Positions 1 through 10,662 of a DNA stretch of 13,300 nt are shown one piece after another. Made by a program: the position numbers and the translations under genes. Every line of letters starts with the position of its first letter. Within the stretch, counting starts at the first letter, position 1. Under the pieces are notes generated by a model. The model was not told where the DNA came from. It searched no databases and saw nothing but the letters and a program-made list of their open reading frames with translations. This stretch comes from a virus (taxonomy: Duplodnaviria; Heunggongvirae; Uroviricota; Caudoviricetes): IMG/VR virus record IMGVR_UViG_2681813205_000017, positions 1-13,300 of that record; one strand, given 5' to 3'.

Positions 1-162
1 ATTACTGCTTCAGGTTGGTGTATTGCTTGCATCTTTCCCTTTTCATTCATAAAGATAGATCAAACAACAAAACCACCACCACCCCCCTGAAAAGGCTCAT
101 AAATAGCGAAAATCCGCGAGGTCTCCGCCCCGTAACAGGTCCATATGCCGGAAAGGACCCGC

Positions 163-184
163 AAAAAAGCCGGATTTCTCCGGC
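163..184 (-). terminator. Intrinsic terminator ending the capsid operon (GCCGGA-GAAA-UCCGGC stem-loop plus U6 on the - strand)
   Basis: 6-bp GC-rich stem with a GNRA tetraloop followed by six U on the - strand RNA, 7 bp downstream of the stop of the 191..604 gene. Confidence 0.7.
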
Positions 185-190
185 CTTGTC

Positions 191-604
191 TCAGATGGTT
201 TTCAGTATGCGATCGATGTCGCCGTCATCGCCCGGGTTTCTGCCATCGTATGCCATGCCAGCTGATACGGCTTGTGGGCTGTGCATGTCCATAAAGTTTT
301 CAAAGGCTGCGGTAAGCTCTGGTGCAACCTTCGGGCGTTCCTGCTCTATGGTCATGTTCAGGATGTTTTTAGCCGTATCAACATCAATACAAGGCACGTT
401 TGCCATTGCACGTAACAGCGGCTGATAGTCGTCAGATTCATGAAGCGCCATAATCGCATCAGCGCGCGGCTTGTCCTTCTCTTCCAGGCTGTTAAGTTGA
501 TATACGGCCTCGTAGGTTGATAAACCTCTGTCAGCCATTGCCCGCGCTTCGGCTTTAAATTTACTCGCCAGCGGTAGCGTCATGATACTTTCATTCGTTG
601 CCAT
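191..604 (-). CDS. Hypothetical protein, last gene of the capsid operon (137 aa)
   Basis: ATG at 604 preceded by a GGGGG Shine-Dalgarno. Starts 13 nt after the stop of the decoration-like gene and is followed by an intrinsic terminator. The + strand ORF 15..425 overlapping it lacks such context. Confidence 0.6.
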   Translation of the reverse strand: MATNESIMTLPLASKFKAEARAMADRGLSTYEAVYQLNSLEEKDKPRADAIMALHESDDYQPLLRAMANVPCIDVDTAKNILNMTIEQERPKVAPELTAAFENFMDMHSPQAVSAGMAYDGRNPGDDGDIDRILKTI

Positions 605-616
605 CGTTCCCCCTGC

Positions 617-952
617 TTATCGCGCCAGCGGCTGAACGGATACGCCAGAACCCGCAAAGGCGGCGCATTTTTTCGCGTCGGTGTCGGCGCTCTCAGGCCA
701 GTTAACGGCGGCAATATTGAATATCCCCGTCTTGTAGCACTGTGCTGATTTCTGCGTCGACGTGTCCACGGGGTACGAGGTCAGATAAACAGCCTTGCCA
801 GATTCCTGACCATCCCACGGCTTAAACTCGCCATTTTCCGCCAGCATCAGCGGGGTAAATTCCTGAATAACGCCAGCATCAGCAGCAAAATGTACCAGCG
901 TCGTGGATACCTGCTGACTACCTGCAAATAACTCAATGTATGGAGTGTCCAT
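617..952 (-). CDS. Head decoration protein, lambda gpD-like (111 aa)
   Basis: Translation shares recalled gpD motifs (TPLML, WDG, YK-G-F, WPE, KK-AFAG-VSV) and similar length. GGGGGG Shine-Dalgarno 5 nt upstream of the ATG. Immediately downstream of the capsid gene. Confidence 0.7.
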   Translation of the reverse strand: MDTPYIELFAGSQQVSTTLVHFAADAGVIQEFTPLMLAENGEFKPWDGQESGKAVYLTSYPVDTSTQKSAQCYKTGIFNIAAVNWPESADTDAKKCAAFAGSGVSVQPLAR

Positions 953-964
953 AGAATCCCCCCG

Positions 965-2020
965 TTAACCAATTTTGACGATAACAAATTTGCGAATATC
1001 TGCCGGTACCGGCTGCGGTGCGCTGTGCGTCTGCACGTACTCAATCGCCGGATCGCCGTCCTCAATCCAGTTTTTCGGGTAAAACATGTTTTGCGTTGCG
1101 CCCGTTCTGACCGCTTCCTGATCCATAATCGCACCATAGGCCACCAGCCCTTTATTGTTGGTGTTACCCAGGACCAGCAAATCAGGCTCAAGGAAATATT
1201 TTTCGGTGCCGTCGCTGTCAGTGTATTTGCCGGAATAGACGACAAGGGCAATATCGCCCAGATAGCCTTTAAAGCTCACCACTTCACCCAGGTTTTTACA
1301 GGCCAGTTCTGCGGCGGATTCTGAACCACGGGAAAGGTCGTACAGTTCGCGGAATTTTTTAAAGCTGCGTAACGTGCGCCATACTTCAGCGCCCATAATC
1401 ATGACGTTTGCGGGGCAATTGCCCTGATCAGCATAAAGCTCGATGTCATAGATTGGATCGTGTGTTTCTTTATCCAGCTCAGACCATTTTTTACCGTCAG
1501 CCTGTTCTATGATATTGCTTTCCGGGATCTTCCAGTCGATTTCATAGCGTTCTATGCCTTCGCCCTCAATGAGGTTTTTTCCGGTCGTTACCGCATTCAC
1601 CGCCAGCCATTCCACGCGTGCCTTAATGGCGTTTATCTGGCGGCGCATGTTGCCAGTAATCAGGCGCATACGGCGATAGGTAGGATCGTTAAGCTGTGCC
1701 GGATCTTCTCCAGCCATGCGCATGATGGTTTTTGTTGGATCGATTTCGTGTTTGGGTTTCATGTAGCCTGGTTTAATCGTGCTGGTTTCGTACCCTTTAT
1801 CGCGCTGGACCTGACTACCCACCATAGGCGAACAGAACGCTGACATCGTAACCTCTTCAATGTCCAGGGTGTCCAGAATGATGTTCTGGGTGTTGAAGGT
1901 CGCCACGTTCGGGAAAAACAGCGTGGTAAACAGCGGACTGAATTTAAATTCTGCAATATCCCCGCGATTCAGGTACGCGAAAAGCTGGTTAGTGTTAAGT
2001 GCCGTTGCTTTGCCTGCCAT
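965..2020 (-). CDS. Major capsid protein, lambda gpE family (351 aa)
   Basis: Translation aligns along its length with recalled lambda gpE (FKF-PLF, PGYMKPKHE, DPTYRRMR, LRSFK, RGSES, VVYSGKY, LVLGNT, YPKNW, GDPA, SAP). GGAGGTG Shine-Dalgarno; start overlaps the upstream stop (TAATG). Confidence 0.85.
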   Translation of the reverse strand: MAGKATALNTNQLFAYLNRGDIAEFKFSPLFTTLFFPNVATFNTQNIILDTLDIEEVTMSAFCSPMVGSQVQRDKGYETSTIKPGYMKPKHEIDPTKTIMRMAGEDPAQLNDPTYRRMRLITGNMRRQINAIKARVEWLAVNAVTTGKNLIEGEGIERYEIDWKIPESNIIEQADGKKWSELDKETHDPIYDIELYADQGNCPANVMIMGAEVWRTLRSFKKFRELYDLSRGSESAAELACKNLGEVVSFKGYLGDIALVVYSGKYTDSDGTEKYFLEPDLLVLGNTNNKGLVAYGAIMDQEAVRTGATQNMFYPKNWIEDGDPAIEYVQTHSAPQPVPADIRKFVIVKIG

Positions 2021-2226
2021 TATTCACCTCCATGCGTCTGATTCATGCCCAGCGCCGCGCGTAAATAGGCGCGGACCTGCCAGCCTGTTGACGGCTCAAC
2101 CATCGCCAGCGGATCAAGTCCTGCCGCAATGCCTGCTTTTACGTTCTGCTGGTGGCGTTCCTTGAGCGCCTTCACGATGTCGGGGCTTATGTACACCGAA
2201 ACACCGCCTTTTTTCTCTTCAGCCAT
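2020..2226 (-). CDS. Hypothetical small protein, first gene of the capsid operon (68 aa)
   Basis: ATG at 2226 with a purine-rich ribosome-binding site. Stop overlaps the capsid start codon (translational coupling). Lies ~55 nt downstream of a near-consensus sigma70 promoter. Confidence 0.6.
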   Translation of the reverse strand: MAEEKKGGVSVYISPDIVKALKERHQQNVKAGIAAGLDPLAMVEPSTGWQVRAYLRAALGMNQTHGGE

Positions 2227-2282
2227 AGTAAGAAATTCCTCTTCGACTTAAAAAATCATAACTGGATGTTTATCCAGTCCTG

Positions 2283-2310
2283 ATTATAATCAGAATTGCA
2301 TTTTATGCAA
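2283..2310 (-). promoter_or_regulatory. Sigma70-type promoter of the capsid operon (-35 TTGCAT, 16-bp spacer, -10 TATAAT on the - strand)
   Basis: On the - strand, TTGCAT (complement of 2305..2310) and TATAAT (complement of 2283..2288) with a 16-bp spacer. Both hexamers sit inside perfect palindromes (TTGCATTTTATGCAA and CTGATTATAATCAG). Confidence 0.55.
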
Positions 2311-2390
2311 TGATATTGAGTTATGTTGCAAATTATGAAATGATTATCCCGATCACGAACGCCAGTGCATCCAAAAACCTCATATGCAAA

Positions 2391-2429
2391 AGCCCGATAA
2401 GAACCCTCTGACCTTATCGGGCTTTTTTT
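2391..2429 (+). terminator. Strong stem-loop with T7 tract (AGCCCGATAAG ... CTTATCGGGCT TTTTTTT); + strand intrinsic terminator geometry, possibly bidirectional
   Basis: 11-bp stem followed by seven T on the + strand. On the - strand the same hairpin is followed by UUUUG. No + strand gene upstream, so it may act mainly as a second - strand terminator or insulator. Confidence 0.5.
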
Positions 2430-2435
2430 GGGCGC

Positions 2436-2457
2436 AAAAAAGCCGGATTGCTCCGGC
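2436..2457 (-). terminator. Intrinsic terminator after the 74-aa gene (GCCGGA-GCAA-UCCGGC plus U6)
   Basis: Same module as 163..184 and 2799..2821 but with a GCAA tetraloop; lies 20 bp downstream of the stop at 2478. Confidence 0.7.
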
Positions 2458-2477
2458 TATGTGTGCTGTGTGCTGGC

Positions 2478-2702
2478 TCAGTCTCTGATCTCTTTCAGAA
2501 ATTCTATCAATGCATCTATCTGTTCAGGATTTACCGCCAGCATTTCACCGGACAGAGCACATCTCACAAAACCATGCTGATCCTTTTCAATCAGTGCGCC
2601 CGTCTCCAGGAATGCGCGGTAATCATTGATGCTCATCGTCTCCATGTTGTCAGCATGGTATTTATCACGCTGTTTTAATATCTCATCAAATTTCATCGGC
2701 AT
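2478..2702 (-). CDS. Hypothetical protein (74 aa), monocistronic moron-like cassette
   Basis: ATG at 2702 preceded by AGAGGA. The gene is bracketed by intrinsic terminators on both sides (2799..2821 upstream, 2436..2457 downstream). Confidence 0.6.
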   Translation of the reverse strand: MPMKFDEILKQRDKYHADNMETMSINDYRAFLETGALIEKDQHGFVRCALSGEMLAVNPEQIDALIEFLKEIRD

Positions 2703-2798
2703 TGTTTTTTTCCTCTGTTGTGTCTGTTTGTTTCAGATAGTAACTATGCCTGACCGTGACGAAAACCCGGTAATGCGCCATACCGTTTCAACTGGTGC

Positions 2799-2821
2799 AA
2801 AAAAAGCCGGATTTCTCCGGC
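2799..2821 (-). terminator. Intrinsic terminator after the PerC-like gene (GCCGGA-GAAA-UCCGGC plus U7)
   Basis: GNRA-tetraloop hairpin plus U-tract on the - strand, 8 bp downstream of the stop at 2829. Confidence 0.7.
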
Positions 2822-2828
2822 TGTTTGA

Positions 2829-3104
2829 TTAGCTGTCCTGGTAATTGCGCCATATTTCATCACCAGCACCATCTATACCCATTTCGGCATAAGTGCGATC
2901 GACTGCCTTTTTCAGGTCTCCGAAATTATCCGGCGGCTCCGGTGCCCTCTGTGCCTTCCTTGAACATTCCAGCCGTCGCATCGTGATGTGATGCCGTTCC
3001 TTGTCTGTCTCCACCAGCTGCATGACTTCACCCCATCGCGCCGCCGCCCTCCGGTAAAAGCCTTTCGCCTCTAGTTCCTCCGCTATGCGGTCATGTACCA
3101 TCGT
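2829..3104 (-). CDS. PerC-family transcriptional regulator (91 aa)
   Basis: N-terminal AEELEAKGFYRRAAARWGEVM matches the recalled PerC/Pch signature (LE-G-WRRAA-RW). The likely start is the ATG at 3104 (GAGGGGG Shine-Dalgarno, 8 nt after the SSB stop) rather than the ORF-track start at 3221, which would overlap ssb by 110 nt. Confidence 0.65.
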   Translation of the reverse strand, partial: TMVHDRIAEELEAKGFYRRAAARWGEVMQLVETDKERHHITMRRLECSRKAQRAPEPPDNFGDLKKAVDRTYAEMGIDGAGDEIWRNYQDS

Positions 3105-3111
3105 CACCCCC

Positions 3112-3522
3112 TCAGAACGAAATATCATCACCGTAAGGGTCATCGCCTCCCGCTGGTGGCTGATTACCCTGTGTGCCTGTGGTTTTGCGTCTGTTCCCGC
3201 CAGGACGTGCCGCACGGGCACTGATTACGCTGTCTGCAATAACCTGATACCCCTGCCGTGTTTCCCCGTTCTGTCCGGTCCACTGGCTTACCTGCATCGT
3301 GCCGGATACGCTGGCAACATCGCCTTTTTGATGTTTAGCCAGGAAATCGGCCTGTTTGCCAAATGCGATAACCGATAACCATAACGTCGCCTGTCCGTCA
3401 TGTGCCTGGCTGCATGGCAACGATACCGCCATACGCGCCAGAGTCATCGGTGTGCCCTTGCTGGTCTGTTTTACCTGCGGGTCGTCCACCAGCCGCCCGT
3501 AAGCGGCTATCTGTGCCGTCAT
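3112..3522 (-). CDS. ssb: Single-stranded DNA-binding protein (136 aa)
   Basis: OB-fold core resembles E. coli SSB (W-x-x-V-x-x-FGK ... KG ... W), followed by a Gly/Gln/Pro-rich linker and an acidic C-terminal tail DDPYGDDISF (E. coli SSB ends DDDIPF). GGAGAGGTG Shine-Dalgarno; ATGA overlap with the upstream gene. Confidence 0.85.
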   Translation of the reverse strand: MTAQIAAYGRLVDDPQVKQTSKGTPMTLARMAVSLPCSQAHDGQATLWLSVIAFGKQADFLAKHQKGDVASVSGTMQVSQWTGQNGETRQGYQVIADSVISARAARPGGNRRKTTGTQGNQPPAGGDDPYGDDISF

Positions 3523-3782: not shown

Positions 3783-3973
3783 CTCACTTTTTCGCCTCAC
3801 TTTTTCAAGCGTCTCACTTCGTCGCAGCTGGGATTTTCGGTTTTTCTATGTGTGTGTTTCATAAGTATTTTTTTACCCCTCACTTTTGAGGATGTATACA
3901 GGTCGAAAAGTGAGGGAGAGCAGGCTAATTTTGGCCCTCTTTCTATCCACCTCGCTTTTGCTCCTCACTTTTA
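3783..3973. repeat. Putative replication origin: six CTCACTT(TT) iterons flanking an AT-rich stretch
   Basis: CTCACTT copies at 3783, 3796, 3813 and 3879, an inverted copy at 3906..3915 (AAAAGTGAGG) and another at 3963, plus a degenerate copy near 3950. AT-rich segment 3836..3876. Lies directly 3' of the helicase gene. Confidence 0.55.
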
Positions 3974-5371
3974 TAGCGGCGCTACATCATCCCCATCGAT
4001 ACGAATAACCCCATCTTTTTCCAGCTTGTACAGCCAGCGCCGGAAGTTTTTCATTTCATACCCCAGCTTTTTCATGTCATCACGTAACAGCGGGATCGTG
4101 CACTTGTCGCCGTTCTGTGTGCGTGAACGGATGCACCCCCATAGCGCGGTATGGTTTTCCGTCTTGTTCCCTGCCTCCTCGATGCGCTCCAGTTCAACAG
4201 GAGGGCGCGGATCATCCACCACCACCAGCGACGTGATTAATTCACCGTCAGCGTCGGTAAAAAGCTCCACCACGCGTAAGTCATATGCGGCTTCTTTGAG
4301 TTCCTCCGCGTCCTTCATTTTGGTGCATGAGATAACCAGCGCTTCGCTTCCTGCGTCCTCCCTGCGTATCCGGTATTCAGCATCCAGCGAAGCACGAAAT
4401 GCACTGGAACCGCGCGCGCCTTTCGTCTCATCCTTGCCGGAATGGTGAACCACCAGCACCGTGGCCCCTGTGCGTCGTTTCAGTTCGTCACAACCACGGA
4501 TAAACGCCCCCATATCACGGGAATCATTTTCATCATTCCCACCAAAGCAACGCGCCAGCGTATCCAGAATAATCATGCGTACAGGTTTACCCGTTTCCCG
4601 CTCCACCTGACGGGCAGCGATAACCATTTCATCAACATCAAGCGGGGCAGCCGGAAAGATGGGGCGGTTTACCAGATACAGATTTTTCACCTGCTCATCG
4701 TGCACAACCTCCCAGGCTTTTACACGACGCGGAACACCTATACCGCCTTCACCAACCACATAGAGAACCGCACCATGTGCAACCCTGCGGCCTCCCCACT
4801 GGCGACCAGTGGCAACATGGCACGCCCACGATCCGGCAAGGAATGATTTATAGGACCCGCTAGCCCCGTATATGCTGCATAGCGATACCGCCGGAATAAT
4901 CCCCTTAACCACGTAATCCAGTTGCGTGTCGTATCCGGTAGATCCAACGCTCATCGGTAGCGTGGTTTTTCGCTGGTGGTTTTTTTCTTCCGCCGGCTCT
5001 TTCCCGCGCACCCGTTCCAGGTATTCGCGCCAGTTCTCCCGCATATGGCTGTGCATCCCTTCGGGGTAATAATTCGCATCAGTTACACCCGCCGCCGCCA
5101 GCTTGTGCGCAATGGCATTAATATTTGATGGCCTGATGTGGCCTGCCTTGTACAGCCGGACACAATAGCGCCCCTCGTCGATGATTCTCAGGTCTGCCAG
5201 TTCATCCAGTTGATCATCAGCCAGCACAACGGGAGGCACATTATCGCCAGCCAGTCGCCCGTCCTGTTCCTGCCACTGTTTCGCATGTGCCCAGGCATCA
5301 CTACCCGCAAAAATAATGACTTCGGTCATCTTGTCGTAAGGCTGTTTTTTTAAGTTCGGTGCGCTTTTCAT
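3971..5371 (-). CDS. Replication initiator / replicative helicase, RecA-fold ATPase (RepA / AAA_25-like), 466 aa
   Basis: Walker A-like GASGSYKS, Walker B-like MIILDTLARCF, and VLVVHHSGKD typical of RepA/DnaB-like helicases of satellites and plasmids. ATGA overlap with the upstream gene; iterons immediately downstream. Confidence 0.75.
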   Translation of the reverse strand: MKSAPNLKKQPYDKMTEVIIFAGSDAWAHAKQWQEQDGRLAGDNVPPVVLADDQLDELADLRIIDEGRYCVRLYKAGHIRPSNINAIAHKLAAAGVTDANYYPEGMHSHMRENWREYLERVRGKEPAEEKNHQRKTTLPMSVGSTGYDTQLDYVVKGIIPAVSLCSIYGASGSYKSFLAGSWACHVATGRQWGGRRVAHGAVLYVVGEGGIGVPRRVKAWEVVHDEQVKNLYLVNRPIFPAAPLDVDEMVIAARQVERETGKPVRMIILDTLARCFGGNDENDSRDMGAFIRGCDELKRRTGATVLVVHHSGKDETKGARGSSAFRASLDAEYRIRREDAGSEALVISCTKMKDAEELKEAAYDLRVVELFTDADGELITSLVVVDDPRPPVELERIEEAGNKTENHTALWGCIRSRTQNGDKCTIPLLRDDMKKLGYEMKNFRRWLYKLEKDGVIRIDGDDVAPL

Positions 5372-5672: not shown

Positions 5673-5906
5673 TTATTCTCCGGTGTGCTGTTCTTTATAT
5701 CTGTCGTGCAATAGATCTATTTCTTGCAGTTCCATTATTACAGGATCAAGAAGCGTTATTAATGCCGTGGCAATTCTTGATTTTTGTTTGTCGCGTTCAT
5801 TGTCGCCAAGTGTTTCAAGCCATATGCGCAATATTTCCAGCATGTTTTCACTGTGAGAAAGTGCAAGAAATGCGCGGTCTATTGTTTGGTGGTAAATATC
5901 ACGCAT
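5673..5906 (-). CDS. Hypothetical protein (77 aa)
   Basis: ATG at 5906 overlaps the stop of the upstream gene (ATGCGTGA). Part of the same coupled gene chain. Confidence 0.55.
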   Translation of the reverse strand: MRDIYHQTIDRAFLALSHSENMLEILRIWLETLGDNERDKQKSRIATALITLLDPVIMELQEIDLLHDRYKEQHTGE

Positions 5907-6357
5907 GGCTTACATCCTCAGGAAATTTTCTTCTATAACGCGCCTCTGCCACATATTCCGCATAATCGGCGGCGATATTCAGTACATCAAGCCCCGTTGA
6001 TTTATATTCTCTCGTGGAAAGTAAGAAAAAAGCCGCTCTAATAAGTTCTGGCATTGACGAAAGCGCATCAGCCGCATCATCAGGAACGCCGGAAAATTCC
6101 TGTTTCAGGGAATTAAAACGATCATCACGCATAACCCCCCCCCCATTTTCACAATCAGCAACAAGAATATTTTTAGCGTCATTCAGCGACCGCGTTGCGG
6201 TGTATCGGATACATTCCAGGGCGAATAGTGTGTATTCTTCCCTTTCTTCCCTTTCTTCCTTTTGTGCAAGCTCTGCTGTGCATTCAATATCAATAAGCGC
6301 GTGCATCAGCGTAGTGAGTGCGGCGGCGGCTGCGTCCGGTGTGGTTTTATTGCACAT
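5899..6357 (-). CDS. Hypothetical acidic protein (153 aa from the ATG at 6357) containing an in-frame G10 tract
   Basis: ATG at 6357 has a GGAGGGG Shine-Dalgarno 3 nt upstream. The ORF-track start at 6411 has no ribosome-binding site and would overlap the upstream gene by 65 nt. Contains an EEREEREE repeat and the Gly-Gly-Gly encoded by the C10 run at 6135..6144. Confidence 0.55.
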   Translation of the reverse strand: MCNKTTPDAAAAALTTLMHALIDIECTAELAQKEEREEREEYTLFALECIRYTATRSLNDAKNILVADCENGGGVMRDDRFNSLKQEFSGVPDDAADALSSMPELIRAAFFLLSTREYKSTGLDVLNIAADYAEYVAEARYRRKFPEDVSHA

Positions 6358-6577
6358 GTACCCCTCCGCATTTTTTTTCGTTAGAAATAAGCGTTCTTCT
6401 TTCCTGTTCATCGATCAGGAATACGCAGACCTCACCGCTAAGGCGTTTAAGTAAGCCGATGATTGCCCCTGATTCGCTGTCGGTCATCATGCCTGGGTAA
6501 TCCTCTGCCAGTGCGCAAATAACTTCGATTTGGTGGGCGCGTTCTACTGCCTGTTGTAGTGTGATTTCCTGGCTCAT
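6347..6577 (-). CDS. Hypothetical protein (76 aa)
   Basis: ATG at 6577 with a GGGGG ribosome-binding site; ATGA overlap with the candidate upstream ORF. Contains an A8 tract on the coding strand. Confidence 0.55.
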   Translation of the reverse strand: MSQEITLQQAVERAHQIEVICALAEDYPGMMTDSESGAIIGLLKRLSGEVCVFLIDEQERRTLISNEKKCGGVHVQ

Positions 6578-6774
6578 AAGCCTACCCCCTGACGAATACG
6601 GGCAGCGAATACCATCACGCAGCCAGCCGGGGATTGCAGGCGTGCTTCCTGTTCGCTGGTGGCCTCAATGGTAATCACGCGCGGTTGTGCAGTGCTCAGG
6701 GCGATAAAACGCCAAATGTATTTATTCAGGTTGTGCGAGTCCCGCCCTTGCGGGTGTGTGGTATGATTTCTCAT
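6574..6774 (-). CDS. Candidate small ORF (66 aa), putative first gene of the early operon
   Basis: Not listed separately in the ORF track; it is the C-terminal end of the spurious 381-aa ORF. ATG at 6774 with a GAGG ribosome-binding site 6 nt upstream; stop overlaps the next start (ATGA); ~100 nt downstream of the predicted - strand promoter. Confidence 0.4.
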   Translation of the reverse strand: MRNHTTHPQGRDSHNLNKYIWRFIALSTAQPRVITIEATSEQEARLQSPAGCVMVFAARIRQGVGL

Positions 6775-6872
6775 AGCTACCTCGATACTCTCGTTATCGT
6801 TGGTGGTTAGAAGCCCCGTTACTGCTCCTACAGTGCGGGGTTTCGTCGTTTCTGCACCTTGCATTAACAAGG

Positions 6873-6950
6873 TGTAAGTAACTTTATTTATAGGTGGCTT
6901 ACATGTCAATGCTTTTATGTAAGACTTTTTATGTGTATATTGTCTTACAC
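6873..6950. promoter_or_regulatory. Divergent switch region: four TGTAAG / CTTACA operator half-sites overlapping a - strand TTGACA-N17-TAAAGT promoter
   Basis: Half-sites at 6873 (TGTAAG), 6898 (CTTACA), 6919 (TGTAAG) and 6945 (CTTACA), alternating in orientation. On the - strand a perfect -35 TTGACA (complement of 6904..6909) and a -10 TAAAGT (complement of 6881..6886) with a 17-bp spacer. Confidence 0.5.
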
Positions 6951-6970
6951 TTTCATTGAGAGGATTACAG

Positions 6971-7276
6971 ATGGCTACAGGTTCAAAAAACGCAAAATCA
7001 CAATCACTGACAGCTCGGATCCCGCATGATGTTATTGAAGGCATGGAATCCGTAAAACTGGACGGTGAAAGCAACGCCGGATTCATAGTAACCGCCATGC
7101 GCGGTGAAATCGCCCGCCGCCAGGCAGAAGGAAGCGGAGAAAACCTCCTGATTTCTTCGCTCAATGCACTGGCGCAGGTGGAAAAACTCGGAATCAAAGC
7201 CGCCGAGGAGATCGGGCAGCTCGTCACTGTCGCACGTGAAGAACTCCAGCGCCGCAAGACTAAAGAACCAGAGTAA
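6971..7276 (+). CDS. Putative transcriptional regulator, candidate repressor of the early operon (101 aa)
   Basis: ATG at 6971 with a GAGAGGA Shine-Dalgarno. Divergent from the - strand operon and immediately downstream of the operator cluster. Function is inferred from position only. Confidence 0.55.
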   Translation: MATGSKNAKSQSLTARIPHDVIEGMESVKLDGESNAGFIVTAMRGEIARRQAEGSGENLLISSLNALAQVEKLGIKAAEEIGQLVTVAREELQRRKTKEPE

Positions 7277-7318
7277 TCACCATCAGCGCCGTGGTGTAAG
7301 GTATTACGGCGCATTGCT

Positions 7319-7507
7319 ATGCAGGACAACACAATGACCGATAAAGAATTGACCAAAACATTATCACCGGCACGGAAAAGACGGCGCAGAAAGATAGAGC
7401 ATGAATCAGAAAGATTCGCGCCATGTGCTTTTGCCCTTGAGCAATTCCTTAAAGAGTACAGGGAAAAGCGCTCATTGCAGGTATGGCAACGAACTGAACC
7501 AGACTGA
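7319..7507 (+). CDS. Small basic protein (62 aa; alternative start at 7334)
   Basis: ORF following the regulator on the same strand, with a Lys/Arg-rich stretch (ARKRRRRK). Followed by an intrinsic terminator at 7603..7630. Confidence 0.4.
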   Translation: MQDNTMTDKELTKTLSPARKRRRRKIEHESERFAPCAFALEQFLKEYREKRSLQVWQRTEPD

Positions 7508-7602
7508 TAGCATTGCCCACCAGCCTGATAGCGACTATCATTGCCGTTCTTATGTTTGGGATCACACACACAAACGGCGCAGCGGGTTATCTGTTCAGAA
7601 AG

Positions 7603-7630
7603 GCGGCTCCATTTCGGGGCCGCTTTTTTT
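7603..7630 (+). terminator. Intrinsic terminator for the + strand regulator genes
   Basis: GCGGCUCC ... GGGGCCGC stem (one G-U wobble) with a 5-nt loop, followed by seven T. Confidence 0.6.
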
Positions 7631-7776
7631 ATGTCTGAAAAACCCCAATTTTGTTGTTTTTCAGTTTCACCAGGGCGAACGAATCCCCGCCCACGTTCTG
7701 GCGTATATTCAATCTTCATGGTTATAGCTCTGTGTTCAGATGATTGATGTGTGGCGGCTGCGTGCCGCCAGCGTGA

Positions 7777-7965
7777 TTAATGAACTGCCTTGCAGCTATC
7801 CTTCCAGGCCAGAACCTCGGATAAAGACCAGCCAACGGAACGACCGCCAAGTTTACGACGTGATGGGAATTGTCCGGCCTTTTCCAGGCGGTAGCGACAC
7901 GTACGGCTAAGGCCGGTTAGTTTTTCGCATTCTTTTTCACGTATAAACCGATCAGTGCTTAACAC
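7777..7965 (-). CDS. alpA: AlpA-family phage regulator / excisionase-like protein (62 aa from GTG at 7965)
   Basis: CEKLTGLSRTCRYRLEKAGQFP ... GGRSVGWSLSEVLAWK matches the AlpA helix-turn-helix signature. The ORF track starts at a TTG at 8046, but a GTG at 7965 has an AGGGGGG Shine-Dalgarno and gives the typical AlpA length. Confidence 0.75.
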   Translation of the reverse strand: MLSTDRFIREKECEKLTGLSRTCRYRLEKAGQFPSRRKLGGRSVGWSLSEVLAWKDSCKAVH

Positions 7966-8238
7966 TATTGCCCCCCTTTCGTTTCTTAAAGAGTCATCAG
8001 GTGTCTTATTGTGTCGTATTGTTCCCGCTAGAGTGATGAATGGCAAATATTGAGGATGTATGATTTACAGAAAATGAAACAGTAAGAATAAAATCTTTTA
8101 AATTCATGTTAATACAAAGGCATAAAATATTGTTTCATGCCTTTTTTCTCACGCGTTAAAGCGTTATTCGCTAATGTATAAAAAAACAGTCACACAAATA
8201 AAATCAGTCACTTATAAACCTGTGTACTTTTTCGCCTC

Positions 8239-8330: not shown

Positions 8331-9548
8331 TTATTTTCTTCTGGCTGCTGGTAGTGCGGTTACGTTTTCATGTGTTCCCGCCAGTATCCCTAACCGCTCC
8401 ATCCACATATCCAGCGCATTGCGTTTAGCATCCAGATAACGGGAATGATTATAAACTCGCTGCATTCCTGGCATCTGGTGGCCTGTAAGCTGCTCCACGA
8501 CATGCGGATCAACGCCTAAATCGTTCAGCATGGTTGTAAAGGTGCGCCGGATGTCATGCAGTGACCAGTGAGGATGATTAAGCCTCCTGTGCGCTAATCT
8601 TCCATACTGCGATACGCTGGCCTCCTGTTTCACTTCCCCCAGCAATAAGCCCGTGTGCCTGTTCTGCTCCACCAGCTGCGTGACGAACGGCAGTATTGCT
8701 TCCGGTATGGGCCGGAATATTGCCACCTTCGTTTTGCTGTGTTCTTTCGGCACGGTCCAGAGCATTTCGGTAAAATCCCACTCGCTGATCTCCGATAACC
8801 TCAGTTCTACCGTCCGGCATCCGAACACAATCAGGAGGCGGATTAACGCGATGTAGTAGGGGGAGAATATTTTTTTGTCCAGTGCCTGCAATAATTCGCC
8901 CAGTTCTTTGGTGCTTAAGACACGCTCGCTTATATCCGGTTTTTTCCCAACGTCCGCCACACTCATATCATCAAGAACGTTGCTGATTGCATAGCGCCGC
9001 CTCCGGCAGAACTTAAGCGCCTGTTTGCACGTCTGTAGCAAGAATCCGGCAGTAACAGGCGTTCGCTTTGCCACCTGGTCAAAACAGGCCAGCCAGTGCC
9101 GTAGCTCGCATTTATCCAGCGGCATAGCACCAATGTGCTGTATTACGTGATTATTAAGTCGCCTTTTCAGGGCGATATAATCCACGCGGTTTTCCTTTAC
9201 GTAATACTCAAGCCAGTAGGTGAGCGCATCGCCAACCGTTACGGGCTTTAACGCTTCCTGTACGGTGTAATTCATCTCATGACGTGGATTTTTCCCCTCA
9301 GCCAGCCATGTGCGACACTGTGCGGCTTTTTCCCTGGCTGCTTTCAGGCTCAGATCAGGATAACTTCCCAGCTTAATGCGTTCGGGTCGTGTCTCCCTTC
9401 CCGTTCCGGCCCTGTATGTGAAATACCAGGTCAATTTCCCTGATGTTAAATATTTCACGCTCAGGTTTCCGCCATCACTATAAAACGTGTTTTTCTCCGC
9501 TGGCTTACCATGAAGTTTCCTTAGCAAGGTATCGCTCAGTTTGTTCAT
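8331..9548 (-). CDS. int: Tyrosine integrase, P4-like family
   Basis: N-terminal arm-binding-type motif (KPAEKNTFYSDGGNLSVKYL), C-terminal catalytic region with HDIRRT and VYNHSRY (R, H-x-x-R, Y). Start is probably the ATG at 9548 (MNKLSD...); the ORF track uses a GTG at 9560. It is the outermost island gene next to the junction. Confidence 0.85.
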   Translation of the reverse strand: MNKLSDTLLRKLHGKPAEKNTFYSDGGNLSVKYLTSGKLTWYFTYRAGTGRETRPERIKLGSYPDLSLKAAREKAAQCRTWLAEGKNPRHEMNYTVQEALKPVTVGDALTYWLEYYVKENRVDYIALKRRLNNHVIQHIGAMPLDKCELRHWLACFDQVAKRTPVTAGFLLQTCKQALKFCRRRRYAISNVLDDMSVADVGKKPDISERVLSTKELGELLQALDKKIFSPYYIALIRLLIVFGCRTVELRLSEISEWDFTEMLWTVPKEHSKTKVAIFRPIPEAILPFVTQLVEQNRHTGLLLGEVKQEASVSQYGRLAHRRLNHPHWSLHDIRRTFTTMLNDLGVDPHVVEQLTGHQMPGMQRVYNHSRYLDAKRNALDMWMERLGILAGTHENVTALPAARRK

Positions 9549-9584
9549 TGCTCTGCTCACGTTTTACCCCCTCTTTACGAAAAA

Positions 9585-9650
9585 GTGACTACACCAGTGA
9601 CTACACCGATCGTTGCACAAAGGGCTACAACGTGAAACAAGCTGGAACAA
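9585..9650. promoter_or_regulatory. int upstream region with a 12-bp tandem repeat (GTGACTACACC x2) and four 10-bp phased units ending ACAA; candidate arm-type or regulator binding sites
   Basis: GTGACTACACCA GTGACTACACCG at 9585..9608. CGTTGCACAA AGGGCTACAA CGTGAAACAA GCTGGAACAA at 9611..9650, which is the reverse complement motif of the array at 8239..8288. Confidence 0.45.
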
Positions 9651-9757
9651 GGAAAATCACAAATCTGTTGATAATCAAAAACATAATGCACAGCCTGAAA
9701 CATTATGAAACAGCAAAAAACACTAAATGATAAAATGCTGTTATTCTTAACCCGCTG

Positions 9758-10642
9758 GTGCAACACATGGTCCGCTGGCGAGTGCCGCGTGTACTGGCGG
9801 TGTCGATTTTGATGACCATCATCGTGATGGCGATGGTGTTGCTATTAGCTTATCTGGGTTCCGCGCTCAACGAGTTGACGCGGACGTTACCGCAATATCG
9901 CAACTCTATTATGACGCCGCTGCAAGCTCTTGAGCCGTTGTTGCAACGCGTAGGGATTGACGTCTCAGTTGACCAGCTGGCGCATTACATTGATCCGAAC
10001 GCGGCGATGACGTTGCTCACCAACTTATTGACGCAGTTATCTAATGCCATGTCATCAATATTTTTATTGCTGCTGACGGTGCTGTTTATGCTGCTCGAAG
10101 TGCCACAATTGCCCGGAAAATTTCAGCAAATGATGGCGCGTCCGGTTGAAGGGATGGCGGCGATTCAACGTGCAATTGACAGTGTTTCTCATTATCTGGT
10201 GCTGAAAACAGCCATCAGCATCATCACCGGCCTGGTCGCCTGGGCGATGCTCGCCGCACTCGATGTTCGCTTCGCTTTTGTCTGGGGATTGCTGGCCTTT
10301 GCGCTTAATTACATCCCTAATATTGGTTCAGTTCTCGCGGCAATCCCCCCTATCGCTCAGGTACTGGTGTTTAATGGCTTCTACGAAGCGTTGCTGGTGC
10401 TGGCGGGATATCTGCTGATTAATCTGGTCTTCGGCAATATTCTGGAGCCGCGCATCATGGGACGTGGGCTGGGGCTTTCCACATTGGTGGTATTTTTGTC
10501 GTTGATTTTTTGGGGATGGTTGTTAGGACCGGTGGGTATGCTGCTTTCCGTGCCGTTAACAATTATTGTCAAAATTGCGCTTGAACAAACAGCGGGAGGT
10601 CAAAGCATCGCCGTTCTGTTAAGCGATCTCAATAAAGAGTGA
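9758..10642 (+). CDS. tqsA: AI-2 exporter TqsA (YdgG), 5'-truncated by the island insertion (294 codons retained)
   Basis: Translation matches recalled E. coli TqsA from its internal [15 protein letters not shown] segment to the C-terminal SDLNKE. An in-frame TAA at 9731..9733 lies directly upstream and there is no native N-terminus or ribosome-binding site. The ORF-track start is an internal GTG. Confidence 0.8.
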
Positions 10643-10662
10643 CGGCCTCCGCAGAGGCCGTC
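10641..10662. terminator. Shared stem-loop between convergent tqsA and pntB (GACGGCCTC-cgca-GAGGCCGTC)
   Basis: 9-bp perfect GC-rich inverted repeat lying exactly between the two stop codons. Confidence 0.55.

Follow-up and report, generated by a model that had tools for sequence, protein, structure and literature searches.

A poly-G tract in a PICI-like Escherichia coli phage satellite is probably a hypermutable junction that fuses or separates two small genes

The stretch of DNA analysed here (the window; 13,300 nucleotides) carries on its minus strand a run of ten G residues (G10). This run is probably a hypermutable poly-G at the junction of two small, translationally coupled genes, where different run lengths fuse or separate the genes in a process of near-neutral drift. 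The poly-G would have two roles, encoding the Gly-rich C-terminus of the upstream product (the N-half) and serving as a Shine-Dalgarno-like element for the downstream gene (the C-half). Replication slippage would alter the length of the run and shift the frame of the N-half relative to that of the C-half. Runs of eight or eleven residues (G8 or G11) would give two genes joined by a ATGCGTGA overlap, the modal and probably ancestral state; G6, G9 or G12 would give two genes, the N-half acquiring a short out-of-frame tail; and G7 or G10, the latter being the state of the window, would give an in-frame fusion via a Gly linker. Whatever the state, the C-half would start translation independently and its stop codon would stay overlapped with the start of the next gene, so that all three states would be tolerated and the length could drift almost neutrally.

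The tract occupies exactly 6135..6144 (C10 on the plus strand). Across it the minus strand reads GAA AAT GGG GGG GGG GTT ATG CGT GAT GAT, or ...CENGGGVMRDD...; in the fused ORF the run supplies the three Gly codons plus the first base of the Val codon, and the ATG of the C-half lies 2 nt downstream. An earlier sequence-only reading had given the same positions and the same translation. The gene in which it placed the tract exists, with a different length: 153 residues were proposed, whereas the RefSeq gene has 152 (ATG at 6357, stop at 5899..5901; WP_044373044.1, strain JB2) and the mechanical ORF, from an ATG at 6411, has 170. G10 is the longest homopolymer in the window and its only C/G run of at least 7. 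The second longest, T8 at 6371..6378, corresponds to the A8 that had been reported on the coding strand of the neighbouring gene. A C10/G10 run arose in 5 of 200 dinucleotide-preserving shuffles (mean 0.04 per shuffle), and a chance origin of the run is moderately unlikely.

The window is E. coli DNA, and the element in it is probably a capsid-forming PICI-like (cf-PICI) phage satellite, with its genes laid out as in capsid-forming PICIs; the assignment is made from the genes in the window, the left end of the island (portal, terminase) lying beyond it. On the minus strand the order is an integrase (8331..9560), an AlpA-like excisionase/regulator (7777..8046), an Icd-like gene, a 76-aa gene, the 152-aa gene, a 77-aa gene, a DUF4222 gene, a RepA/AAA_25 helicase-primase (3971..5371), an SSB, a PerC-like activator and then the capsid genes, which in the window comprise an HK97-type major head protein, a head decoration protein and a protease-related protein. 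The tract thus sits in the early operon, downstream of the AlpA-like gene and on the same strand. None of the small genes that separate the Icd-like gene from repA matches a Pfam family, and the PHROGs families to which they belong carry no assigned function. Overexpression of alpA promotes reproduction of the island EcCIEDL933 (10.1101/2025.02.11.637232).

The island adjoins tqsA, pntB and pntA in the window. In the closest relative, RefSeq marks the tqsA beside the island (~9560..10650 in the window; 9957..11051 in L001) as missing its N-terminus, which suggests that the 5' end of tqsA, next to pntB/pntA, was the insertion site of the satellite or was displaced by it. Between roxA and phoQ, an O157:H7 island of the same layout, ~10.5 kb long, encodes a small terminase subunit and carries a G7 fused allele. 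Upstream of the tract, a 381-aa mechanical ORF (6574..7719, minus strand) is probably not a single gene; near-identical RefSeq islands have in its place a 66-aa Icd-like gene (~6574..6774), an Icd-like/ash-like pseudogene fragment and, on the other strand, a member of the YlcI/YnfO family.

The 152-aa ORF (5899..6357, minus strand) is the in-frame fusion of the two halves that arises with G7 or G10. It aligns over its whole length with phrog_2512 (154 aa) and has no Pfam match. Its N-half module (codons 1-71; 6145..6357, minus strand) matches phrog_5146 (74 aa) and is a stand-alone gene of ~72-80 aa in relatives with G8 or G9 and in distant relatives. Its C-half module (77 aa, MRDDRFNS...; 5899..6132, minus strand) has an ATG of its own at 6132..6130 and matches phrog_24341 (77 aa) from residue 1. 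PHROGs has the fusion and each of the halves as three separate families.

Run length sets how the two modules are read. With G8 or G11 the N-terminal ORF ends ...ENGGGYA*, its TGA (6127..6125) overlapping the next ATG within the motif ATGCGTGA (6125..6132, minus strand). With G6, G9 or G12 it continues to ...GGGLCVMIVLIP*, a short out-of-frame tail (LCVMIVLIP*). With G7 or G10 it reads through in frame as ...ENGG(G)VMRDD.... The stop/start overlap of a coupled gene pair is accordingly absent from the window, in which the TGA at 6127..6125 is out of frame with G10, and present in the G8/G11 relatives. A second ATGCGTGA overlap (5899..5906, minus strand) joins the C-half to the next gene (77 aa, 5673..5906); the octamer and its following bases (ATGCGTGAT, encoding MRD...) occur at both of these successive operon junctions. 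RefSeq annotation follows the frames: G7 and G10 alleles are called as one gene, the G9 allele of strains 6883 and H19 as a 'frameshifted' pseudogene, and the G8 allele of Nissle 1917 as two 73-aa genes with an 8-nt overlap. Variants reading ENGGGM in frame had the look of compensatory deletions, but a G7 allele carrying a T-to-G substitution, GGGGGGGG-T-ATG, explains them more simply.

It had been expected from the sequence that slippage by one base would truncate this protein and probably uncouple translation of the downstream genes. The frames point elsewhere: the tract is the boundary of two separable genes, and both half-ORFs are intact in every frame. Shortening the window's run by two residues yields G8, the commonest state, and restores a ATGCGTGA overlap like that at 5899..5906; shortening it by one yields two genes, the first with a short tail, and neither the downstream half nor the coupling to the next gene is evidently lost. 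Nor is the possible slipped-strand switch of the sequence-only reading evident as an ON/OFF switch, since no frame state removes either half-ORF. Because G8 is the commonest length, both halves are intact and the C-half has its own ATG, the G10 of the window is a rare fused allele and not the intact wild type.

The proposal that the tract is prone to slippage is well supported by its variation, and the comparison among related islands that was suggested with it gives lengths from 6 to 12, which differ even between otherwise identical flanks. Four related RefSeq islands have G10 (JB2), G9 (6883 and H19) and G8 (Nissle 1917). We assembled 96 copies of the junction (the window, these four loci, and 90 IMG/VR loci and one Shigella locus found by a flank-anchored pattern search), a sample biased towards conserved junctions because retrieval required exact flanks. 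Lengths range from G6 to G12 with a mode at G8: one copy has G6, 23 have G7, 36 have G8 (a further five are interrupted 8-mers), 20 have G9, five have G10, two have G11 (a further one is interrupted) and three are interrupted 12-mers. An uninterrupted G run is kept in ~90% of the copies.

Counting each flank haplotype once per length, and interrupted tracts by their total length, gives a spectrum from G6 to G12 of 1/16/35/16/4/3/2. This spectrum is unimodal and symmetric around 8, with G7 (fused) as common as G9 (third frame), and shows no 3-nt periodicity in tract length. By frame class it comprises 20 fused, 38 overlapping and 19 third-frame alleles; the G8/G11 frame is enriched (p = 0.012, by a statistic that ignores phylogeny). 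A requirement for the fused protein would produce peaks at 7 and 10, and a requirement for the exact overlap would make G7 and G9 rare. Neither pattern is seen, and only the modal G8 appears to be preferred.

Complete genomes show the same breadth. The junction is present in 732 of 5426 complete E. coli genomes (872 places). At least one perfect copy with G7 is found in 383 genomes, many of them O157:H7; with G8 in 208; with G9 in 188, including the reference genomes of strains 11368 and 11128; with G10 in 28, including E. coli 042 (NC_017626.1); and with G11 in at least three. A single Shigella copy was found in the genome-contig scan, and at the stringency used the junction appears to be confined to E. 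coli/Shigella.

Repeat length differs between close relatives, as it does at contingency loci. Tract length is polymorphic in 8 of 13 groups that share identical 386-bp gene flanks, and 9 of 22 gap-free pairs with at most two SNPs per 900 bp differ in it. The window and the corresponding locus of strain 6883 (L001) are identical over 900 bp but for the tract (G10 vs G9). Five islands, at least four of them at the tqsA/pntB site, are at least 99.2% identical over 1.3 kb around the tract; among them JB2 and CD45 have G10, 6883 and H19 have G9, and B1_2, which is not in the G10 list, is 1 nt shorter. Tract length changes fast relative to point substitution.

The separability of the halves extends to distant homologues. 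An exhaustive HMMER search of 1.84 billion cluster representatives returned only 41 related clusters, of which the most distant are all stand-alone halves. Five C-halves (P0132, P0140, P0149, P0159 and P0161) start at query residue M76 or within one residue of it, and three N-halves (P0142, P0146 and P0158) end at about residue 73, P0146 and P0158 having no Gly run. The sole contig with P0146 (L101) has the N-half gene followed directly by a homologue of the window's 77-aa gene (E = 1e-8); the C-half is absent from it, the gene after the N-half showing no C-half similarity. Its junction, CAGGAGGTGGGGCATGCATAA, comprises a canonical Shine-Dalgarno sequence and a G-run, then an 8-nt overlap. A protein search with P0146 returned P0146 alone; in scans of viral contigs P0146 gave one weak match (L100) and P0159 no relative. 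The N-half and C-half are two separable genes and the 152-aa ORF is a fusion allele; the two-gene arrangement with the 8-nt overlap is probably ancestral.

Among the E. coli copies the allele types of the two halves assort independently (alignment A2). In the same alignment (window 5899..6357), N-half alleles of the EEREEY and ISVIADRAHKH... types are variously paired with C-half alleles of the types ...RYRRKFPEDVSHA, ...ILRKTTDGD and others. Given this mixing, recombination between modules may have its boundary at the highly conserved junction ILIADCENGG-VMRDDRFNSLKQEF.

Both halves behave as coding sequence. Of the 96 copies, 85 have an intact C-half ORF (73 or 77 codons), across all tract frames. 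Upstream, the N-half frame runs open for 69 codons or more irrespective of tract frame, in all copies but one, which is cut at a contig end. Pairwise dN/dS values of 0.43 (N-half) and 0.38 (C-half), at pS 0.33-0.37, point to coding sequence under moderate purifying selection in both halves and not to decaying pseudogenes. A low-confidence AlphaFold2 model of the protein (30 homologues; mean pLDDT 55, pTM 0.43) has a helical-hairpin (two-helix) N-half, a disordered segment over the Gly run and a helical C-half. The model would be compatible with a tolerated linker fusion and is too poor for the fusion to be called harmless.

The position of the tract and its predicted pairing suggest a role in initiation. 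Its duplex with the 16S anti-Shine-Dalgarno sequence is calculated at -11.1 kcal/mol for G8 to G12 and -11.3 kcal/mol for G7, the strongest of the operon; the other junctions range from -5.7 to -10.7 kcal/mol. G-runs also stand at other junctions: the 76-aa gene is preceded by GGGGG, the N-half by GGAGGGG and repA by GGGG. We infer that the G run is the ribosome-binding site of the C-half, embedded in the Gly-rich tail of the N-half, and that the C-half initiates independently at its internal ATG. A long run offers many acceptable registers, so that a change in length would not disable such a ribosome-binding site.

Two further repeats flank or lie within the N-half gene. The A8 tract (6371..6378, minus strand) precedes the N-half ATG by 14 nt and falls in the 3'-terminal part of the 76-aa gene upstream (6347..6577). 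Where this tract is present it is A8 in 21 copies and A7 in one, and the A7 allele fuses the 76-aa gene in frame with the next gene. Four clusters of 217-221 aa (P0003, P0005, P0007 and P0020) read ...SNEKNAEGYMCNK..., which corresponds to the A7 fusion of the 76-aa gene with the N-half and the C-half; P0003 occurs on 52 contigs. Inside the N-half, a 9-nt tandem repeat of 3.2 copies (6235..6263, minus strand; TTCTTCCCT on the plus strand) encodes EER repeats. Its copy number is polymorphic in frame: among relatives with the same allele, four have two full units and four have one (EEREEREEY vs EEREEY). With it, this small gene has a second repeat prone to slippage.

Three other accounts of the tract were weighed against near-neutral drift at a gene junction. 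The one that fares best is that of a true contingency (phase-variable) locus, in which switching between split and fused forms of two early proteins alters the behaviour of the satellite (induction, helper specificity or interference) and so provides bet-hedging at the population level. A simple-sequence repeat inside an annotated ORF is indeed what the window contains. Lengths vary to an extreme degree and change quickly compared with flanking SNPs, the run is uninterrupted in ~90% of copies despite an allele pS of ~0.35, all three frame states are common, and two assemblies of strain 97-3250 differ at the tract alone. Against this, neither ORF is abolished in any state, and ON/OFF switching of a product by length was not found, as judged from sequence alone. 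The smooth distribution of lengths around 8 gives no sign of frame selection. Conservation at the two four-fold sites of the run does not stand out, 26% of the four-fold sites in these genes being as conserved. More than ten Nissle 1917 assemblies with matches of equal length (1287 bp; the one read has G8) also suggest stability at laboratory scale. We consider a contingency locus unlikely. On the preferred account of near-neutral drift, the fused form could still be a functional, selected state in some lineages, given the many fused alleles (383 genomes with G7, many of them O157:H7).

A second account holds that the G10 of the window is a sequencing or assembly error, the true state being G9 or G8 and the 152-aa ORF an artefact of one or two miscalled bases. 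The sequence-only reading had also flagged the site as error-prone, and rightly: two complete assemblies of strain 97-3250 are identical over 4.1 kb except at the tract, where CP027599.1 has G9 and two ORFs and CP074773.1 has G10 and one 145-aa ORF, which makes the tract a credible position for sequencing or assembly errors. Part of the G9/G10 differences may be sequencing errors. The best flank match to the window (L001, strain 6883), with identical flanks, has G9, G10 is rare (28 of the 732 genomes), and the assembly from which the window derives lies outside the complete-genome set. G10 nevertheless occurs in 28 independent complete genomes, E. coli 042 (NC_017626.1) included, and in IMG/VR contigs, and it yields a clean in-frame ORF. 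The polymorphism between lineages is independent of cases of the 97-3250 type and stands apart from the call made in the window: the more than ten assemblies labelled as, or derived from, Nissle 1917 have matches of identical length (1287 bp), with G8 in the one read, and 11368 and 11128 have G9. An error in the window is accordingly improbable.

One apparent same-strain pair was discarded. Two records labelled E. coli 042, NC_017626.1 (L096; G10) and NZ_CP042934.2 (L097; CP042934.2, G9), are not the same strain, their island proteins differing and their genomes measuring 5.24 and 4.69 Mb; one label is probably wrong. Apparent same-strain differences at the tract consequently call for a check of the labels.

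The third account, that RNA polymerase or the ribosome slips at a programmed site, much as at the dnaX and IS-transposase frameshift sites or in the phage tail-chaperone G/GT pair, so that each genotype makes separate and fused products and the DNA length is nearly irrelevant, is very improbable: the run of GGG codons would permit perfect tRNA re-pairing after a shift and every DNA frame is tolerated, but such sites hold a fixed frame relation and a conserved slippery motif, whereas here three frame relations are common and vary freely, the run is missing in distant relatives, and a 121-nt fold around the tract gave no RNA structure beyond shuffles (z = -0.18) that might act as a stimulatory element, the run itself being Shine-Dalgarno-like. 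In the G8 state the Shine-Dalgarno-like G run followed by UAU-GCG-UGA bears a loose resemblance to the prfB +1 site, a point in favour of programmed slippage. In E. coli, most documented cases of efficient transcriptional slippage involve A/T runs, a point against it.

We hold as no better than a long shot the broader proposal that the tract is a selected satellite contingency switch among separate, tailed and fused forms, or a site at which polymerase or ribosome slippage gives several isoforms per genotype. If true, such a switch would diversify, from cell to cell, the response of the cf-PICI to helper phages or its interference with them, and either version would be a bet-hedging device based on a simple-sequence repeat (SSR) in E. 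coli mobile elements, where such devices are considered rare.

On the preferred account of near-neutral drift at a two-gene junction, the main consequence is for annotation. The call hinges on one to three bases and affects hundreds of E. coli genomes, O157:H7, O26, O111 and Nissle 1917 among them; calling the locus a pair of genes linked through an unstable Shine-Dalgarno-like sequence would remove the inconsistency. The site is also useful for checking homopolymer errors in assemblies, and its split and fused alleles form a natural series for probing two uncharacterised cf-PICI early proteins. It is a clear case of long G-run instability in E. coli, tolerated across a phage-satellite family. 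A G-run so unstable and so widespread is, to our knowledge, unusual in E. coli. Absent a phenotype, the tract is a mutational hot spot of the ordinary kind.

Hypermutable homopolymers and fusion/fission polymorphisms are already well known, and the tract can be set beside several such systems. Homopolymer tracts are known in Bordetella pertussis (PMC1891110) and Neisseria (PMC5084427). Like the poly-G/poly-C SSR contingency loci of Neisseria, Haemophilus and Campylobacter, this tract is a G/C run of at least 7 in coding sequence that shifts the frame and varies among very close strains. Unlike them, it lies at a gene junction, its downstream cistron has its own start, and no state removes a product. 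The host also differs, E. coli being mismatch-repair proficient and generally poor in long SSRs.

The element itself resembles cf-PICIs such as EcCIEDL933 (10.1101/2025.02.11.637232) in its integrase, AlpA-like protein, RepA-type helicase/primase, SSB, PerC-like protein, HK97-type head, decoration protein and protease-related protein. The cf-PICI literature searched makes no mention of the two small genes or of the tract, and the words 'frameshift' and 'homopolymer' are absent from 10.1101/2025.02.11.637232. The variable calls at the locus, as one gene, two genes or a pseudogene, are like the fusion/fission and 'frameshifted' calls made at other homopolymers; unlike decaying pseudogenes, the split halves are under purifying selection and distant relatives are natively split. 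Finally, the junction is like the coupled overlapping pairs (ATGnnTGA or ATGA) of phage and satellite operons, in that G8 alleles carry exactly ATGCGTGA and the next junction has the identical octamer. It is unlike the usual coupled pairs in that its Shine-Dalgarno-like sequence is a long, unstable homopolymer and its overlap has repeatedly been converted to a fusion or to a longer overlap.
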